64,000 bases of DNA from Shigella phage Sf20, in sequence record MF327006. One strand, written 5' to 3'. Shown in pieces: positions 52,207 through 60,202 of this stretch. Made by a program: the position numbers and the translations under genes. The notes beneath the pieces are model-generated. The model was not told the origin of the DNA, did no database searches, and worked only from the letters and a program-made list of their open reading frames with translations. The first letter of the stretch is position 1; each line of letters begins with the position of its first letter.

Positions 52207-52536
52207 TTATAGTCTCCTGAATGGGTCATCACGTAAATCAATATCTTTTAAGAACTCATCCCATGAATGGCGGATATTGTTCTTAATTCTCCAGATGAGC
52301 GCAGGGATTGAACGCTCTCCCATCTGGAAGTATGGATCATATGATCCGTATGCCCAATATGCTACTACAATTCCACAATCAGAGCAATAGTATTCTATTT
52401 CACTTGCTGGCGACCAAAGTCCATCAATATGATCGGTGATCTTGCTTTCGATGTTATGGCTATGACAATCAGGGCAACGGATGCAATGACCTTGTTTATC
52501 GTAATTTGACGTTAGCGAATACTTAAACAATCTCAT
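52207..52536 (-). CDS. zinc-ribbon protein, 109 aa
   Basis: Cys clusters CIRCPDC and CSDCG; start overlaps upstream stop (TAATG). Confidence 0.55.
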   Translation of the reverse strand: MRLFKYSLTSNYDKQGHCIRCPDCHSHNIESKITDHIDGLWSPASEIEYYCSDCGIVVAYWAYGSYDPYFQMGERSIPALIWRIKNNIRHSWDEFLKDIDLRDDPFRRL

Positions 52537-53252
52537 TATAGATCCTTATTTGCTTCAAATACTGCCTTTGCGAATCCTCGCGGGGTAAGTGACCTTATAG
52601 TCTTTGTTTTCGTTCCTTTCCCGCCTAGCTTAGAATGCTGTTTACTGTACCCTTTATTAATCTGCAACGGTTTCTTTTCTGGCATTATAAAGCCTTGTCC
52701 GGTCCATAAGCAAGTCTTTTTTGGGTACATATCACGGGCGGCAATATACTCAGGAAACGTAGGATGCTTATCATCTTCCGGCAAATAACCGCCATATTCC
52801 CACGGATGGAACATATAATCAGGCTTACGCCACATGCTAGAGATAACGCTTACAGGATTCTCTATCATGTAGGGAACTCCTAGCCATTCACCCAAATAAG
52901 CGGTTATTTTAGCTGCCCGTACATCATGAACTTGAATCAATGGTCCTTGTTCTCGTTTCTTTCGTTCAAAGTGCGCAGCGCCACTAACAGCTAAATTGGT
53001 GCACGGTGGGAATGCAAAGATAATATCCGGTTTCCCCCATTCAAGGTCCATTGCTCTTTCCAGCCAGTTCAAATCAATCCATGTGTTTACATAGGTAATG
53101 TTTGGATGTTCAAATCTGGTATTATACTTTTTGTATGTGCCGTGGTCGCCATCATCAGCATTAAAGCAGATCACCTTATGACCTGCTTTAGCCCATTCTA
53201 GCCCCATTATCCCCGATCCGTCAAAGTTACAGAATATTAATTTTTGTTTCAT
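52536..53252 (-). CDS. C5-cytosine methyltransferase-like protein lacking a target-recognition domain, 238 aa
   Basis: Motif I FCNFDGSG, FNADD, motif IV FPPCTNLAVSGA (PC), motif VI MIENPV; RBS AAAGGGG. Confidence 0.5.
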   Translation of the reverse strand: MKQKLIFCNFDGSGIMGLEWAKAGHKVICFNADDGDHGTYKKYNTRFEHPNITYVNTWIDLNWLERAMDLEWGKPDIIFAFPPCTNLAVSGAAHFERKKREQGPLIQVHDVRAAKITAYLGEWLGVPYMIENPVSVISSMWRKPDYMFHPWEYGGYLPEDDKHPTFPEYIAARDMYPKKTCLWTGQGFIMPEKKPLQINKGYSKQHSKLGGKGTKTKTIRSLTPRGFAKAVFEANKDL

Positions 53253-53782: not shown

Positions 53783-53811
53783 ATTGTAGGGGAGTTATCC
53801 TCCCCTGTCAA
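53783..53811 (-). promoter_or_regulatory. PeSL-like cassette promoter 2: TTGACA - GGGGAGGATAACTCCCC - TACAAT
   Basis: Plus attgta 53783-88, 17-nt hairpin spacer, tgtcaa 53806-11. Confidence 0.55.
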
Positions 53812-53825
53812 CACTTTTTATAAAA

Positions 53826-53993
53826 TTATTTGTTAATTTCTGGTGCGTTGCTAGGATAGTAACCTTCTTTAACACCCAGATATTTTGCAACCATCCCTAC
53901 AATCTTCTGTGCTACTACAATGTCAAATTTCAGATAATCTTCGCCGTGGGTTTCAATGATATATGCTTCACATGCTGCTTTAGTCTCGAACAT
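53826..53993 (-). CDS. small hypothetical protein, 55 aa (paralog copy A)
   Basis: MFETKAACEAYIIETHGEDYLKFDIVVAQK..; about 85 percent nt identity by eye to copy at 57593-57760. Confidence 0.55.
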   Translation of the reverse strand: MFETKAACEAYIIETHGEDYLKFDIVVAQKIVGMVAKYLGVKEGYYPSNAPEINK

Positions 53994-54026
53994 TTTGATT
54001 CTCCTATTTCGTTTCGTTATGTGTGT

Positions 54027-54055
54027 ATTATAGGGGATCTCCCGATCCCCGTCAA
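54027..54055 (-). promoter_or_regulatory. PeSL-like cassette promoter 3: TTGACG - hairpin GGGATCGGGAGATCCCC - TATAAT
   Basis: Plus attata 54027-32, 17-nt hairpin spacer, cgtcaa 54050-55. Confidence 0.55.
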
Positions 54056-54069
54056 CAACTTTTTTAAAA

Positions 54070-54351
54070 TTATTCGTGATTAGTTTCGATGTTGTGCATT
54101 TTGCACCAGTTCAGCCAATCACCCAGATCCTGATAGTTAATGCTTTTATCTGCTGCCATCGTTTTTGTCTTGATACCCATATGTGCGTTATGAGTAAGCA
54201 TTTTTACAGTGAACTCAATTTTATCACCTTTAGCTTTAACATCAACCAGTTTGGTCCACTGGCTACCAGCGCCGCGAATGTTCATACCAACGATGTTTCC
54301 GATGTATGCTTCTTTGTTTTTCAGGATTTCGGTTGCTTTGATGAATTTCAT
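54070..54351 (-). CDS. hypothetical protein, 93 aa
   Basis: ORF starting directly downstream of cassette promoter 4 and conserved leader. Confidence 0.5.
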   Translation of the reverse strand: MKFIKATEILKNKEAYIGNIVGMNIRGAGSQWTKLVDVKAKGDKIEFTVKMLTHNAHMGIKTKTMAADKSINYQDLGDWLNWCKMHNIETNHE

Positions 54352-54384: not shown

Positions 54385-54413
54385 ATTATGCTATGTTCTT
54401 ACTTTGGTGTCAA
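54385..54413 (-). promoter_or_regulatory. PeSL-like cassette promoter 4 (degenerate): TTGACA - N17 - CATAAT
   Basis: Plus attatg 54385-90, tgtcaa 54408-13; spacer not palindromic. Confidence 0.45.
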
Positions 54414-54731: not shown

Positions 54732-54760
54732 ATTATGCTATAGGCCGGATCTGGTGTCAA
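54732..54760 (-). promoter_or_regulatory. PeSL-like cassette promoter 5: TTGACA - CCAGATCCGGCCTATAG - CATAAT
   Basis: Plus attatg 54732-37, 17-nt spacer, tgtcaa 54755-60. Confidence 0.5.
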
Positions 54761-55219: not shown

Positions 55220-55249
55220 ATTATGCTATAGGCTAGACCAGGTTGTCAA
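55220..55249 (-). promoter_or_regulatory. PeSL-like cassette promoter 6: TTGACA - N18 - CATAAT
   Basis: Plus attatg 55220-25, tgtcaa 55244-49. Confidence 0.5.
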
Positions 55250-55271: not shown

Positions 55272-55300
55272 ATAAAAAGCCGACACTAAGGTCGGCTAAT
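55272..55300 (-). terminator. terminator hairpin GCCGACACTAAGGTCGGC (second exact copy)
   Basis: Hairpin 55279-55296 followed on minus strand by TTTTTATTT. Confidence 0.6.
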
Positions 55301-55304
55301 AAAA

Positions 55305-55613
55305 TCATTTAGACAAGTAATCATTCTGTGCAATACGGTCGGCGTATGCTGGTGTTATGTCAATCGCCAGCACTTTAACGCGTGCTTTCTTGCGACCTGG
55401 GTTTTCTCGTAACCAGTGCTCATGACCGTGAACATTTTTATACTTTGATGCTTCTTCAAATGTACGGATCGGACCTGGGTAATCAGCGTAAAGGATCTCT
55501 AGGTCTTCGGTGATGTAAAAATATACATCGTAATTACTGTTCTCTAGTTTAAGCAGAGAGTTGCGAAATTGTGGTAAATTCTCGCGGGTAAATTCAACTA
55601 CAAGATTTTTCAT
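55305..55613 (-). CDS. HxHW-family small protein, paralog A, 102 aa
   Basis: Signature YDVYFYITEDL ... HGHEHW ... VLAIDI; RBS GAGGA. Confidence 0.55.
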   Translation of the reverse strand: MKNLVVEFTRENLPQFRNSLLKLENSNYDVYFYITEDLEILYADYPGPIRTFEEASKYKNVHGHEHWLRENPGRKKARVKVLAIDITPAYADRIAQNDYLSK

Positions 55614-55639
55614 AGTGATATCCTCATTCAGATAGATTA

Positions 55640-55660
55640 AAAGGGGGCTTAACGCCCCGT
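55640..55660 (-). terminator. terminator-like hairpin GGGGC-ttaac-GCCCC
   Basis: Hairpin 55644-55658 downstream of stop at 55664. Confidence 0.5.
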
Positions 55661-55663
55661 ATA

Positions 55664-55951
55664 TTAAAACAGTCCTTCCTGTACACCGTAGTAGAGTTCA
55701 TCGCTGATAATTTCATTAATGCGACGGTGTGCATATTCCTGATTTGCGAAGTTATCAGCAAGTTCTACTTTAGTTTCGCCGTCATGAGTCCATTTAGTGA
55801 TAACTTTACCATCTGCAAATTTGAAGTTGAACTCTTTAGCTACTGCATCGCGTACCAGACGTGCGAACTTGTTGTTACGGATTGCATTATCGGTTTCGTG
55901 TGCAGCGTGAGCGAATTTGTTAACTTTCAGAGTGATAGTAATGTATGCCAT
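55664..55951 (-). CDS. hypothetical protein, 95 aa (paralog of the gene at 58978-59289)
   Basis: Shared segment LVRDAVAKEFNFKF vs EVRKALAKEFNTKI. Confidence 0.5.
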   Translation of the reverse strand: MAYITITLKVNKFAHAAHETDNAIRNNKFARLVRDAVAKEFNFKFADGKVITKWTHDGETKVELADNFANQEYAHRRINEIISDELYYGVQEGLF

Positions 55952-55997
55952 AATTTGATTCTCCTAGTTAGAAAGTGTATCTCGTTTCGATGGGGAT

Positions 55998-56026
55998 ATT
56001 ATGCTATATCCCCGATCCGGTGTCAA
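55998..56026 (-). promoter_or_regulatory. PeSL-like cassette promoter 7: TTGACA - CCGGATCGGGGATATAG - CATAAT
   Basis: Plus attatg 55998-56003, 17-nt spacer, tgtcaa 56021-26. Confidence 0.5.
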
Positions 56027-56032
56027 CACTTT

Positions 56033-56311
56033 TTATAAAATAATTTTTTGATATTTTTCTATGATGTTCGTGTAAGTCACATCAACCGCTAGCACCGTTG
56101 CTTCGAATCCACCGTTTAGCCAATGGCTATGATCATGATCGTGAAAGAAACCTAGACCAGTACGAAGACCTTCTTTATATTCTGCGCGTACATTCAGTTT
56201 GTCGTCGATAAACAGATAAAACCATGAATTTTTACTAGGATTGATGATACAACCTTTCAGATTAGGGAGAATATCACGACTAAGAATAAACTTATCACCT
56301 ACTTTGAGCAT
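56033..56311 (-). CDS. HxHW-family small protein, paralog B, 92 aa
   Basis: Signature WFYLFIDDKL ... HDHSHW ... VLAVDV; start at ATG 56311 with RBS GAGGAAAA (ORF-track extension trimmed). Confidence 0.5.
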   Translation of the reverse strand: MLKVGDKFILSRDILPNLKGCIINPSKNSWFYLFIDDKLNVRAEYKEGLRTGLGFFHDHDHSHWLNGGFEATVLAVDVTYTNIIEKYQKIIL

Positions 56312-56325
56312 AATATTTTCCTCAC

Positions 56326-56634
56326 TTATAAAGTTTGACCGTTGTTTTTCGCGTAATGCTGAATGCGTGCTTGATCTGCTTCCGCTGGTGATAGATTCCA
56401 TGCGATCACTACAACTTCTGACGCATCATGATCATTATCACTTACCCAATGATTATGATTCATACAATTGTTTGCTATCGCGTGAGCAAATGATCTCATT
56501 ACCGGAGACGTATAATCATAGTAACGGATTTTCAGATTTTCATCAACGTACAAGTAGATCGTATACGGCTTATATTCAGTAACCAGTAACAGACAGTTAC
56601 GCAATTCTGGGAAAATCTTTTTAGTTAATTTCAT
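56326..56634 (-). CDS. HxHW-family small protein, paralog C, 102 aa
   Basis: Signature YTIYLYVDENL ... HNHW ... VIAWNL; start at ATG 56634 (N-terminus MKLTKKIFPEL parallels paralog A). Confidence 0.5.
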   Translation of the reverse strand: MKLTKKIFPELRNCLLLVTEYKPYTIYLYVDENLKIRYYDYTSPVMRSFAHAIANNCMNHNHWVSDNDHDASEVVVIAWNLSPAEADQARIQHYAKNNGQTL

Positions 56635-56635
56635 T

Positions 56636-56866
56636 TTATAATCCTCGGTCGCGGCTATAGTAAACGGTACGCCATACAATTTCATGTTTCGTGTCGCTCC
56701 AGCACACGATCTCATTTACTCTTAAATCTTTGTTATCAACAAAAGATGAACATTGTGACGCTTCTTTCATCATTTTATCTGCTGTTTTCTCATCAAATAC
56801 AGCACAGATTTCTTTATACACTCGATAATCTTTGAATTGACTCTGAATACCCATAATTAACACCAT
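56636..56866 (-). CDS. hypothetical protein, about 76 aa (paralog of the gene at 56814-57077); start uncertain
   Basis: Shared segment FKDYRVYKEICAVFDEKTADKMMKEASQC vs FKEYKAYQQILRVYAPEFAEKMMEDASKC. Confidence 0.4.
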   Translation of the reverse strand: MVLIMGIQSQFKDYRVYKEICAVFDEKTADKMMKEASQCSSFVDNKDLRVNEIVCWSDTKHEIVWRTVYYSRDRGL

Positions 56867-57077
56867 TCCAACCAATTGTTTTTGAGAAAACGTTTATCCA
56901 CTGTTGAGTGTAACATGTTTCTTTCCATGATACAATACGAGTAGAATAATGGTTTTTGTTTCCAGAAAAGGACGGGCATTTTGATGCATCTTCCATCATC
57001 TTTTCGGCGAACTCTGGTGCGTATACTCGCAGGATCTGTTGATATGCTTTGTATTCTTTAAATTTGCTCATAATCAT
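56814..57077 (-). CDS. hypothetical protein, 87 aa
   Basis: ATG 57077; 3-prime end overlaps the start of the downstream paralog in another frame. Confidence 0.45.
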   Translation of the reverse strand: MIMSKFKEYKAYQQILRVYAPEFAEKMMEDASKCPSFSGNKNHYSTRIVSWKETCYTQQWINVFSKTIGWNGVNYGYSESIQRLSSV

Positions 57078-57336
57078 TCACTACCTTATCAGCTTCTTTT
57101 GTTGTTTTTACATCAACTGCGATAACTCGTAAAGGTTCGTCATGGTTCCACCAGTGGTCATGAATATCAGCTTGTGATTTATCACCAAAGGAATCACGAA
57201 TATCATTTTTACATTTATAGCTAATGTGACCTTCATAGTCAACATAAAGGTAATTATCGAAAATCGGCGTTTTTAAGATCATACCGAAAAATCTTTCTTT
57301 GTGTGTCTTATCCAGCGTTGCAGTAATTCGCATCAT
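57058..57336 (-). CDS. HxHW-family small protein, paralog D, 92 aa
   Basis: Signature NYLYVDYEGH ... IHDHWW ... VIAVDV; RBS AAGAGGA. Confidence 0.55.
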   Translation of the reverse strand: MMRITATLDKTHKERFFGMILKTPIFDNYLYVDYEGHISYKCKNDIRDSFGDKSQADIHDHWWNHDEPLRVIAVDVKTTKEADKVVNDYEQI

Positions 57337-57348
57337 AATATATTCCTC

Positions 57349-57528
57349 TTAGAAAGGGATGGTCATTTCTTGAGCTTGTACGTTCTCGTTAGGATTAAAC
57401 TTCATCCAGCCGATATTGTCTACCAGCATATGCACATTTTTATCATATCCTACGTGGGTAGTCAATACTGTATGTGCTTTACCTTCAATGATGAGTTCCA
57501 TGTACTTCTGAACTTCGATAGCTTTCAT
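57349..57528 (-). CDS. small hypothetical protein, 59 aa
   Basis: ATG directly after conserved cassette leader (GGAGAATCAAA-ATG); below ORF-track size cutoff. Confidence 0.45.
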   Translation of the reverse strand: MKAIEVQKYMELIIEGKAHTVLTTHVGYDKNVHMLVDNIGWMKFNPNENVQAQEMTIPF

Positions 57529-57560
57529 TTTGATTCTCCGTTTGTTGTCTTGATGGGAGT

Positions 57561-57589
57561 ATCTTACTACTCCCTTTAATCATTGTCAA
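57561..57589 (-). promoter_or_regulatory. PeSL-like cassette promoter 8: TTGACA - N17 - TAAGAT
   Basis: Plus atctta 57561-66, tgtcaa 57584-89; GGGAGTA..TACTCCC hairpin in leader. Confidence 0.45.
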
Positions 57590-57592
57590 CTA

Positions 57593-57760
57593 TTATTTGT
57601 TAATTTCTGGTGCGTTGCTCGGATAGTAACCTTCTTTAACACCAAGATATTTTGCAACCATTCCGGTGATCTTCTGTGCTACTACGATATCGAATTTCAG
57701 GTAGTCTTCACCGTGGTTTGCTACAATGTACGCTTCGCATTCTGCTTTAGTCTGGAACAT
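57593..57760 (-). CDS. small hypothetical protein, 55 aa (paralog copy B)
   Basis: MFQTKAECEAYIVANHGEDYLKFDIVVAQK..; ORF-track TTG extension trimmed. Confidence 0.55.
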   Translation of the reverse strand: MFQTKAECEAYIVANHGEDYLKFDIVVAQKITGMVAKYLGVKEGYYPSNAPEINK

Positions 57761-57794
57761 TTTTGATTCTCCTATATCTCGTTGGTATGTGTGC

Positions 57795-57823
57795 ATTATA
57801 GGGGATCGGTGATCCCCTGTCAA
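57795..57823 (-). promoter_or_regulatory. PeSL-like cassette promoter 9: TTGACA - GGGGATCACCGATCCCC - TATAAT
   Basis: Plus attata 57795-800, 17-nt hairpin spacer, tgtcaa 57818-23. Confidence 0.6.
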
Positions 57824-57828
57824 CAACT

Positions 57829-58122
57829 TTATAATGCTTTATATGCGTATTTCATAAATTTGTCTGCCACTTCATTGGCATGTTCAGATTCTACGCCTGA
57901 TTCGAGAACAATAGCTAGGTCGGTTTCGTCATTCCCGCCGTACCAATGATTTGATGTTCGATTTTTTTCAATTGGAAAGTGGTCACTTTTATCTGTGCGA
58001 CAAAATACATCTAAATGCTCGTCGATGTAAAAGATCCAATCTTCATAAAGAATAACGGTATTAGCAAGATTTTTATTGCCTTCAACGAAAGGTTCGGCTA
58101 CAAACAAATTAGTATGTTCCAT
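57829..58122 (-). CDS. HxHW-family small protein, paralog E, 97 aa
   Basis: Signature DWIFYIDEHL ... SNHW ... AIVLES; start at ATG 58122 with RBS GAGGAAA. Confidence 0.45.
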   Translation of the reverse strand: MEHTNLFVAEPFVEGNKNLANTVILYEDWIFYIDEHLDVFCRTDKSDHFPIEKNRTSNHWYGGNDETDLAIVLESGVESEHANEVADKFMKYAYKAL

Positions 58123-58138
58123 AGTATTTTCCTCAAAA

Positions 58139-58330
58139 TTATACAGCTTCGTAAACTTCCCAATGTCCAACACCAGCACGCTTAACGAAAAGGTTTTCTT
58201 TGATGTTATTCATAAACGTCTGGATGGATTTAATGCGGTTTGAAGGTTTCCATTCTTCGTTGGCATTGCGTCGATACATCATAACATTACCAGTTCGCTT
58301 ATATTCAGCAACCATTTTAAGACCACACAT
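58139..58330 (-). CDS. hypothetical protein, 63 aa
   Basis: ATG 58330 with RBS GAGGA. Confidence 0.45.
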   Translation of the reverse strand: MCGLKMVAEYKRTGNVMMYRRNANEEWKPSNRIKSIQTFMNNIKENLFVKRAGVGHWEVYEAV

Positions 58331-58387
58331 AATATTATCCTCAATTTGTGGGAGAGTATTACCCCTCCCAATGATTGTTATGTTATA

Positions 58388-58708
58388 TCACACAAAATGG
58401 CGTGTCAATGCTTCTTTTGCGGTTCCGCTAAGACTTTCGATCTCGCCTGGCATAACATCAACCGCCAGAACTTCTACAACATCCTCGGACCCTAACCAGT
58501 GAGTATGACCTTTGTAGAACTTGATAACCAGACTACCTTCCTCGTCCCATTTAACGCTATCGCTAGCCCACCACACATCACAGTCGATAAAGTTGATGTA
58601 AAGCACACTACGCCACATTGAATTAATTACTTTCAATATTGCGCCTTTCATCTCTTCCACGGTATGGTCTTCCATTTTGAAGACCTCACCTACCTGAACT
58701 TTTGCCAT
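58388..58708 (-). CDS. HxHW-family small protein, paralog F, 106 aa
   Basis: Signature VLYINFIDCDV ... GHTHW ... VLAVDV; RBS GAGGTGA. Confidence 0.55.
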   Translation of the reverse strand: MAKVQVGEVFKMEDHTVEEMKGAILKVINSMWRSVLYINFIDCDVWWASDSVKWDEEGSLVIKFYKGHTHWLGSEDVVEVLAVDVMPGEIESLSGTAKEALTRHFV

Positions 58709-58725
58709 TTAGTCACCTCTCTTTA

Positions 58726-58905
58726 TTACATAACAATCACGCCAGCCGTTGAAAGTTGATGTTTCAACTGAGCATTTTCTGCTACCGTCAAATCAATGAT
58801 TTCTTGTGACGCTGCAATCATATAGCCATTGGTGATATTGTTTTGCATCAGTTCAATGGTTTCTTCGTTGTAGCGGATTTTAGCGATGATTTCGTTGAAG
58901 TTCAT
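58726..58905 (-). CDS. small hypothetical protein, 59 aa
   Basis: ATG after conserved cassette leader; below ORF-track size cutoff. Confidence 0.45.
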   Translation of the reverse strand: MNFNEIIAKIRYNEETIELMQNNITNGYMIAASQEIIDLTVAENAQLKHQLSTAGVIVM

Positions 58906-58939: not shown

Positions 58940-58969
58940 AGTATAGGGGAGTTTAACCTCCCCTGTCAA
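58940..58969 (-). promoter_or_regulatory. PeSL-like cassette promoter 10: TTGACA - GGGGAGGTTAAACTCCCC - TATACT
   Basis: Plus agtata 58940-45, 18-nt hairpin spacer, tgtcaa 58964-69. Confidence 0.5.
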
Positions 58970-59334: not shown

Positions 59335-59363
59335 AGTATAGGGGATACGTGATCCCCTGTCAA
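59335..59363 (-). promoter_or_regulatory. PeSL-like cassette promoter 11: TTGACA - GGGGATCACGTATCCCC - TATACT
   Basis: Plus agtata 59335-40, 17-nt hairpin spacer, tgtcaa 59358-63. Confidence 0.55.
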
Positions 59364-59728: not shown

Positions 59729-60202
59729 TTACTCCTTATTTTCGCGCTCGTACTTTTCGAAATAAAATTCTACTGGCTGGTCATTAATTGACAGCAATCC
59801 AAAGCGTTTAGCCGCTCGCAATCCCATATTGCGCTGAATGTACTTCTGGAAGTTCTCGCGTATACACTTACGCCAGTATTCTAAGCCCATACAGCTTTTA
59901 TAAAGATTGCATTGCACACACGCCGGATTCATGTTATCAAGTATATCATGTTCCGGTTTATGCATTCCTACAACCTTATACTTCCACGATCCATCATCAT
60001 TACGGGCAATTCGTCCATTTTCATCATAGACTACCTTTGAGCGTCGCAATACTGGTTTGATGTGGTCTGCGTGCCAGCGATCCCCTAGTTCCTCGCCACA
60101 ATAGGCACAACGTCCACCATATTTCATTTTCAGGATCTGTCGTTGCTCTTTCTTTGACAATTTTTTAGGTTTAGGGGCTTTCGCCCCTTCATTATCACAC
60201 AT
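59729..60202 (-). CDS. HNH endonuclease, 157 aa
   Basis: HNH signature CAYCG ... HADHIKP ... N ... CVQCN; RBS AAGAGGT. Confidence 0.65.
   Translation of the reverse strand: MCDNEGAKAPKPKKLSKKEQRQILKMKYGGRCAYCGEELGDRWHADHIKPVLRRSKVVYDENGRIARNDDGSWKYKVVGMHKPEHDILDNMNPACVQCNLYKSCMGLEYWRKCIRENFQKYIQRNMGLRAAKRFGLLSINDQPVEFYFEKYERENKE

Follow-up and report, generated by a model that had tools for sequence, protein, structure and literature searches.

Six tandem genes of Shigella phage Sf20 are diverged paralogs of one uncharacterised small domain with an HxHW motif

In the 64,000-nucleotide (nt) stretch of Shigella phage Sf20 DNA analysed here (sequence record MF327006; this whole stretch is hereafter the window), six small genes between positions 55305 and 58708 are true, old and diverged paralogs of one domain, and this family is named here the X family, with copies A to F. 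A sequence-only reading had proposed six divergent paralogs, and all six open reading frames (ORFs) were found to be present on the minus strand, which is the strand of all genes in the region, and to match RB49p197, RB49p199, RB49p200, RB49p203, RB49p206 and RB49p208 of phage RB49, respectively. Paralog A (55305–55613) carries the motifs YFYITED and HEHW, together with a GAGGA-type ribosome-binding site and flanking hairpins, and paralog B (56033–56311; 92 amino acids, aa) carries FYLFIDD, HDHDHSHW and VLAVDV, with a GAGGA ribosome-binding site upstream. The corresponding motifs are YLYVDEN, HNHW and VIAWNL in C (56326–56634; 102 aa), YLYVDYE, HDHW and VIAVDV in D (57058–57336; 92 aa), FYIDEH, SNHW and VLESGV in E (57829–58122; 97 aa), and YINFIDCD, HTHW and VLAVDV in F (58388–58708; 106 aa). 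All copies have intact ORFs and ribosome-binding sites, and the proteins are hydrophilic and neutral to acidic, the acidic E and F having isoelectric points of 4.6 and 4.8; no signal peptide or membrane segment was evident in the X sequences, and the proteins are taken to be soluble.

The relationship among the copies was assayed by leave-one-out searches, in which a profile built from five copies was run against all 598 window ORFs of at least 40 aa. The omitted copy was the top non-training match every time, with E-values of 1e-11 for A, 5e-9 for B, 2e-13 for C, 8e-7 for D, 1e-7 for F and 5e-3 for E, and the next, unrelated ORFs had E-values of at least 0.09. The proposal of one diverged paralog family was thus borne out over the range from 2e-13 to 5e-3. 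Pairwise phmmer comparisons were weak for several pairs, and copy E matched the others at E-values of 0.02–4, being linked mainly via D at 0.02. Profile searches of the window and of the whole RB49 genome revealed no further copy, RB49 having six, all within this region. A co-linear Y-[IV]-D hairpin, an H-x-H-W motif, a hydrophobic strand followed by D/N-V and a C-terminal helix, which define the X family, were found in all six copies, and a MAFFT alignment placed the three motifs in the same order throughout. The signature had been described as shared by all six; the three motifs are indeed common to them, but the third, V(L/I)A(V/I)D(V/I), is strict in only four of the six, the deviants being C (VIAWNL) and E (VLESGV), and the first His of HxHW is missing in this phage's E (SNHW). 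Paralog E is the most divergent copy, and most of its orthologs carry HNHW and (A/E)SDV.

In the six-copy alignment, the other copies share 17–35% identity with A, and H66, W67 and V81 are invariant. Across 31 diverse X domains, H66 and W67 were conserved in 31/31 and H64 in 29/31, while position 33 was Tyr in 27 and Phe in 4, and D35 and F52 were each found in 25/31; only H66 and W67 are therefore invariant family-wide.

To judge from its sequence, the window is from a Krischvirus, an RB49-like coliphage: the ~4-kb region is 97–99% identical to Escherichia phages vB_Eco_SAP, TB34 and RB49, and the 58 phage records that match it are all of Krischvirus type. Nine Krischvirus loci (RB49, SAP, JK32, MIZ4, kaaroe, Delraymugoa, Skers, G2248 and UPWr_E1) were compared with the window, and exactly six copies in the same A–F order were found in 10/10 genomes. 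From 5.8e9 clusters, a word-index search retrieved 90, each orthologous (at least 54% identity) to one of the six copies, and an exhaustive HMMER profile search of 1.84e9 protein representatives returned 21 clusters at E-values of 1e-3 or below; a second word-index search with a broader profile yielded no further members. The usable clusters belong only to Krischvirus or to a few uncultured T4-like relatives, none with an annotated relative, and tblastn with P0092 and P0100, two of the distant members, as queries retrieved only Krischvirus from 50,697 phage records.

Copy number varies only among more distant, mostly uncultured relatives. An uncultured 2.1-kb contig (L003) holds five X domains in four adjacent genes, and hence at least 5 copies, and a T4-like contig with a ligase 72% identical (L018) has two X genes and one gene of the helical Y family, described below, between ligase and alt, along with homologs of several other small genes of the region in shuffled order. 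The survey of relatives thus gave six copies throughout Krischvirus, with possibly a seventh in some of its members, 2 in L018 and at least 5 in L003. The possible seventh is an 88–89-aa gene directly upstream of F in some Krischviruses (L015 4145–4411, L016 4322–4588, L020 7918–8184 and L017 763–1032), which reads IIYVTEDD..GNGHLI..HLLAHSV, keeps one His without HxHW, and has no counterpart at that place in the window (58708–58726); profile comparison (hhalign probability 73%, E-value 3e-5) makes it a probable degenerate family member. A bacterial candidate, P0104 (L005 6001–8898; GCA_036492835.1, AP025320.1), was rejected as a homolog, its E-value of 1.5e-4 arising from short repeated 'FYI..xHWL' local matches of ~20 residues. 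This protein is a 965-aa predicted lipoprotein with about six repeats of ~130 aa, each ending in '..TFYINTxTGKxHWLSG', and its repeat domain has no confident Pfam assignment.

Selection was estimated by the Nei-Gojobori method over the nine Krischvirus loci and the window. The ratios of nonsynonymous to synonymous substitution (dN/dS) were 0.19 for A, 0.12 for B, 0.17 for C, 0.16 for D, 0.16 for E and 0.15 for F, as compared with 0.02 for the ligase and 0.44 for a 63-aa neighbour. Therefore, these values of 0.12–0.19 indicated that the X genes are functional and constrained, and not diversifying within the genus. The description of the array as diversifying multi-copy genes did not survive this result and the fixed order of all six copies in the ten genomes; the divergence between the paralogs is old, and not present-day within Krischvirus. 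The synonymous divergence (dS) was 0.70 among E orthologs and 0.30 among A orthologs, as against ~0.1 for flanking genes, which suggests that divergent E and A alleles may have been exchanged by recombination in an otherwise near-identical backbone. Within orthogroups, variable positions cluster at the N-terminus, in the loop between strand 4 and HxHW, in the loop after HxHW and in the C-terminal tail, while strand 2, the strand 3–4 hairpin and HxHW showed no variation.

For the A protein, an AlphaFold2 model was built from a 28-sequence alignment, with a predicted local distance difference test score (pLDDT) of 84.3 and a predicted template-modelling score (pTM) of 0.80. The order of elements in this model is a strand, a short helix, three strands, two short helices, a strand and a long C-terminal helix, and the second short helix begins at HxHW. 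The X domain is thus predicted to be an alpha/beta domain with four N-terminal strands, a variable loop, a short helix led by HxHW, a fifth strand and a C-terminal helix. A Foldseek search against BFVD retrieved only Krischvirus family members, including paralogs at 17–33% identity; the models of paralogs from other Krischviruses matched the A model with probability 1.00 and template-modelling (TM) scores of 0.57–0.79, and therefore the fold is shared. That the common motifs arose by chance, or that the genes are decaying non-functional duplicates, could draw on the individually weak pairwise comparisons, in particular those of copy E; we regard this as refuted by the leave-one-out E-values down to 2e-13, the intact ORFs with their ribosome-binding sites, the conservation of all six copies in each Krischvirus checked at dN/dS of 0.12–0.19, and the confident structure prediction with a common fold.

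The family had been suspected of being uncharacterised, and this was upheld: no significant match for the X proteins was found in Pfam or NCBIfam, 0 families of the PADLOC-DB defence models matched at an E-value of 1 or below, and a profile search of PDB sequences gave nothing below an E-value of 0.9. PHROG 9345, annotated as 'unknown function', was matched by five of the six proteins (best E-value 1.3e-50); the remaining copy is assigned only to other small PHROGs, and part of the membership is in PHROGs 17255, 16486, 15965 and 15972. A literature search on the locus tags, protein accessions and PHROG identifier found no paper naming the genes.

It is very improbable that the X domain is a diverged member of a known superfamily, such as the JAB/MPN metalloproteases or the KOW/SH3-like domains. 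Such a reading can be drawn from a match of B to Pfam PROCT (E-value 0.0018, 18.7 bits), from the label 'KOW2-KOW3 domains of Spt5' that the source, a public metagenome-assembled genome annotation, gives to the B ortholog P0070, and from the KVGD/VGE...KG pattern at the start of B and F, which is reminiscent of KOW. The PROCT score, however, is under the gathering cut-off of 23.6 and concerns one of the six members, there is no E...HxHx7Sx2D arrangement, and the PDB-sequence search speaks against it as well. As a JAB/MPN (JAMM) candidate, the domain was rejected with the 18.7 bits of B against the threshold of 23.6 and no match for the other five. The JAMM motif E...H-x-H-x(7)-S-x(2)-D is absent, with no conserved Ser-x-x-Asp after HxH; the nearest conserved Asp lies 14–25 residues downstream of HxH and is N or G in several members. 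Both domains have an H-x-H after a beta-strand region, and one X member gives the sub-threshold PROCT match, but the JAMM spacing and its Ser/Asp partners are absent from X, and the X domain is ~30–40 residues shorter. No fold similarity to MPN was found, and neither a Pfam KOW match nor an SH3-like barrel of the Spt5-NusG type. The metallo-beta-lactamase fold was also rejected, the X domain having neither HxHxDH nor the alpha-beta/beta-alpha sandwich of ~200 aa or more.

The genes lie where a phage accessory region had been proposed, in the alt-to-gene-30 hyperplastic region of RB49-type phages with its PeSL early promoters. The window ends correspond to ~63.2 kb and ~127.9 kb of RB49, in which the counterpart of the array lies between alt plus a DNA methyltransferase and an HNH endonuclease plus the gene 30 ligase, and all RB49 genes in this interval are annotated as 'hypothetical protein'. 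A promoter scan indicated nine near-consensus sigma-70 promoters on the minus strand within 6.5 kb, at 53783–53811, 54027–54055, 54385–54413, 54732–54760, 55220–55249, 55998–56026, 57795–57823, 58940–58969 and 59335–59363, each with 11/12 or 12/12 consensus positions. They are embedded in repeated intergenic families of 35–95 nt, with a G-run/C-run stem-loop of the GGGGATC..GATCCCC type in the spacer between −35 and −10, and these repeated elements are the PeSL cassettes described for RB49 and phi1. Located in the hyperplastic region downstream of such promoter and stem-loop cassettes, the X genes are PeSL-associated genes by position.

Three promoter units hold the six genes. The PeSL-type early promoter at 58940–58969 (TTGACA-18-TATACT, 11/12, repeat families D5–D7) would drive a 59-aa gene, F, a 63-aa gene and E. 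That at 57795–57823, PeSL206/205, is a perfect TTGACA-17-TATAAT (12/12) with the GGGGATC..GATCCCC spacer stem-loop, belongs to repeat family D1, and would drive W2, a 59-aa gene, D, Y1, Y2, C and B. Work on RB49 (PMC2839356) showed with a lacZ fusion that PeSL206/205 has promoter activity, and found the PeSL211/210 stem-loop to terminate transcription efficiently. A minus-strand hairpin resembling an intrinsic terminator (55278–55297; AGCCGAC..GTCGGC followed by a T run) stands directly after A. The X genes are thus probably transcribed with their neighbours from PeSL cassettes, and the type of promoter suggests that they are expressed early.

The operon that holds D and C is tightly packed, and two minus-strand genes of the helical Y family (PHROG 8471) are placed between these copies, Y1 (56814–57077; 87 aa) and Y2 (56636–56854; 72 aa). 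The 3′-end of D overlaps the start of Y1 by 20 nt, and the stop of Y2 is 1 nt ahead of the ATG of C. Like the window, L006 and L020 have a Y gene next to an X gene, and the model of a Y protein is helical (pLDDT 90), with no match found. On a metagenomic contig (L004 318–1100), a 260-aa ORF with no plausible internal start has the arrangement Y-Y-X, with a C-like X domain, and may represent a Rosetta-stone link between the two families. The order Y1-Y2-C of the window, in which the three genes are adjacent or overlapping (Y1 and Y2 at 56636–57077), is the same as that of the L004 ORF. The 203-aa protein P0092 (L003 823–1434) consists of two tandem X domains, the second with YFHPN in place of YIDxN.

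Our tentative reading, held as a serious possibility and not as an established role, is that the X proteins are early-acting binders of different host targets, built from a conserved scaffold with variable loops around HxHW. Early in infection, each paralog would bind or modulate its own host target stoichiometrically; a phage target is less likely. The beta-scaffold and the HxHW element would form a common interaction site or metal-stabilised site, and the loops flanking HxHW, which vary between paralogs and within orthogroups, would set the specificity; the X-X and Y-Y-X fusions hint that the X domains may work in dimeric form and in concert with the neighbouring helical Y proteins. The conservation pattern, with H66 and W67 as the only invariant residues and H64 in 29/31, is easier to reconcile with a structural or binding motif than with a full catalytic site. 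The sequence-only reading had suggested metal binding from the His-rich motif, for which the candidate ligands would be H64 (29/31) and H66 (31/31), the only conserved ones. The possible acidic ligands, Asp35 and the Asp of AVDV, are exchanged for other residues in several members, which leaves few invariant ligand positions as against the three or more that a metal site would call for, and HxHW is incomplete in the E copy of this phage and absent from the probable seventh member. Its proposal of a host-takeover or counter-defence role is plausible from the location and the probable early expression, and the unmodified cytosine of Krischvirus DNA makes counter-defence attractive, RB49 DNA being without hydroxymethylcytosine and its glucosylated form (PMC4041780). 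Several points weigh against the binder model: the argument for it is one of anatomy and context, a constant set of six copies with low dN/dS is unlike the rapid turnover typical of many anti-defence genes, and the fusions come from single short metagenomic contigs (L003 of 2.1 kb and L004 of 1.2 kb) and could be assembly errors. A stronger version is unlikely, namely that the six paralogs and Y, as homo- and heterodimers, form a fixed arsenal of inhibitors, each against a different Escherichia coli immune or stress effector, through a new HxHW-centred and possibly metal-dependent recognition fold, as a protein-based substitute for the missing cytosine hypermodification.

Alternatively, the X proteins could be small enzymes that depend on a metal, such as hydrolases with a nucleotide, a signalling molecule or a modified macromolecule as substrate, which would differ by paralog. 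HxH and acidic residues would then form the catalytic metal site, and a dimer interface might complete it. The near-invariant H-x-H (29/31 and 31/31) and the Asp of the strand 3–4 hairpin (25/31) agree with this, and the two domains of the tandem X-X fusion could share one active site; but only two residues are truly invariant, Asp35 is replaced by T, N or H in some members, and the Asp of AVDV, which looks like a helix N-cap, by N or G in others. Moreover, the E protein of this phage is without the first His, HxHW is entirely missing from the probable seventh member, a length of ~95 aa is short for an enzyme, and neither an HxHxDH motif nor a significant fold match was found, so that we judge an enzymatic function to be improbable. 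We are similarly doubtful that the six paralogs and Y are subunits of one or a few hetero-oligomeric assemblies, retained because all are needed. Their strict co-retention in fixed order in all Krischviruses examined would be expected of such assemblies, the tight packing and overlap of D-Y1-Y2-C-B suggests coupled translation, and the natural X-X and Y-Y-X fusions are in line with it. The T4-like contig L018, however, manages with two X genes and one Y gene, the six genes are split over three promoter units, and the dS and amino-acid divergence of the orthogroups differ several-fold, which suggests independent allele replacement and not co-evolution as a unit. The reading of the X proteins as binders of different host targets is the one that we prefer.

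The kind of object described here, orphan early genes in a PeSL-rich hyperplastic region, is already known, and it is the family and its fold that are new. The PeSL-flanked ORFan cassettes of RB49 and phi1 occupy the same genome region, and are likewise small early genes behind near-consensus sigma-70 promoters with a stem-loop, as described by Arbiol et al. (2010; PMC2839356) and Comeau et al. (2014; PMC4122927); PeSL206/205 and PeSL211/210 of that work lie inside or beside the X array. The subject of those papers is regulatory cassettes and gene gain and loss between close relatives, and their searchable text contains no mention that the six ORFs are paralogs of one domain. Unlike the variable PeSL cassettes, the X genes are fixed across the genus. 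The remote-homology clustering of PHROG 9345 already groups five X proteins, but the tandem array and the HxHW signature are not recorded there. The X genes are thus deposited and automatically clustered, with no description in the searchable literature and their paralogy not noted. Small early proteins for host takeover or anti-defence, such as T4 Arn, Dmd and IPI/IPII, are a general class in T-even phages. For IPI/IPII, this is set out in bioRxiv 10.1101/2023.04.06.535777. The X proteins resemble this class in their small size, early or accessory status, non-essential region and lineage restriction, but they have no sequence or fold relationship with it, and the X copies are not patchy within the genus.

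Nothing in this evidence would surprise a specialist; the result is a clean, testable candidate family. To our knowledge, the hyperplastic-region genes of T4-type phages are mostly orphans, very few of which have a known target. The X case is a tractable one, being a single domain with no recognisable fold, six conserved and selected copies and a sharply defined invariant motif, and RB49-type phages can be engineered easily owing to their unmodified, Cas9-sensitive DNA (PMC4041780). If the X proteins prove to inhibit specific targets, the counter-defence or host-takeover repertoire would gain a new protein fold, and it would become apparent how host immunity is handled by a phage that lacks DNA hypermodification; should they have no host-range phenotype, they would be an ordinary orphan family.

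Several further features of the region were observed. An Rfam scan of the whole window gave no match. The small-gene region is flanked by a Dcm-like DNA methyltransferase gene (52536–53252; 238 aa) and an HNH endonuclease gene (59729–60202; 157 aa) that overlaps the start of the ligase gene. At 53993–54070, the RB49 ORFan192 (RB49p192, 477 nt) is missing, and a single PeSL joins its neighbours; the same loss, with a single PeSL between the neighbours, was previously reported for phi1 versus RB49. A 55-aa gene is duplicated at 53825–53996 and 57592–57763, with 87% DNA identity over 172 nt, and this duplication is recent. Its product, of PHROG 8009 and reading MF(E/Q)TKA..YYPSNAPEINK, is 100% conserved across Krischviruses, with a dN/dS of 0.00.

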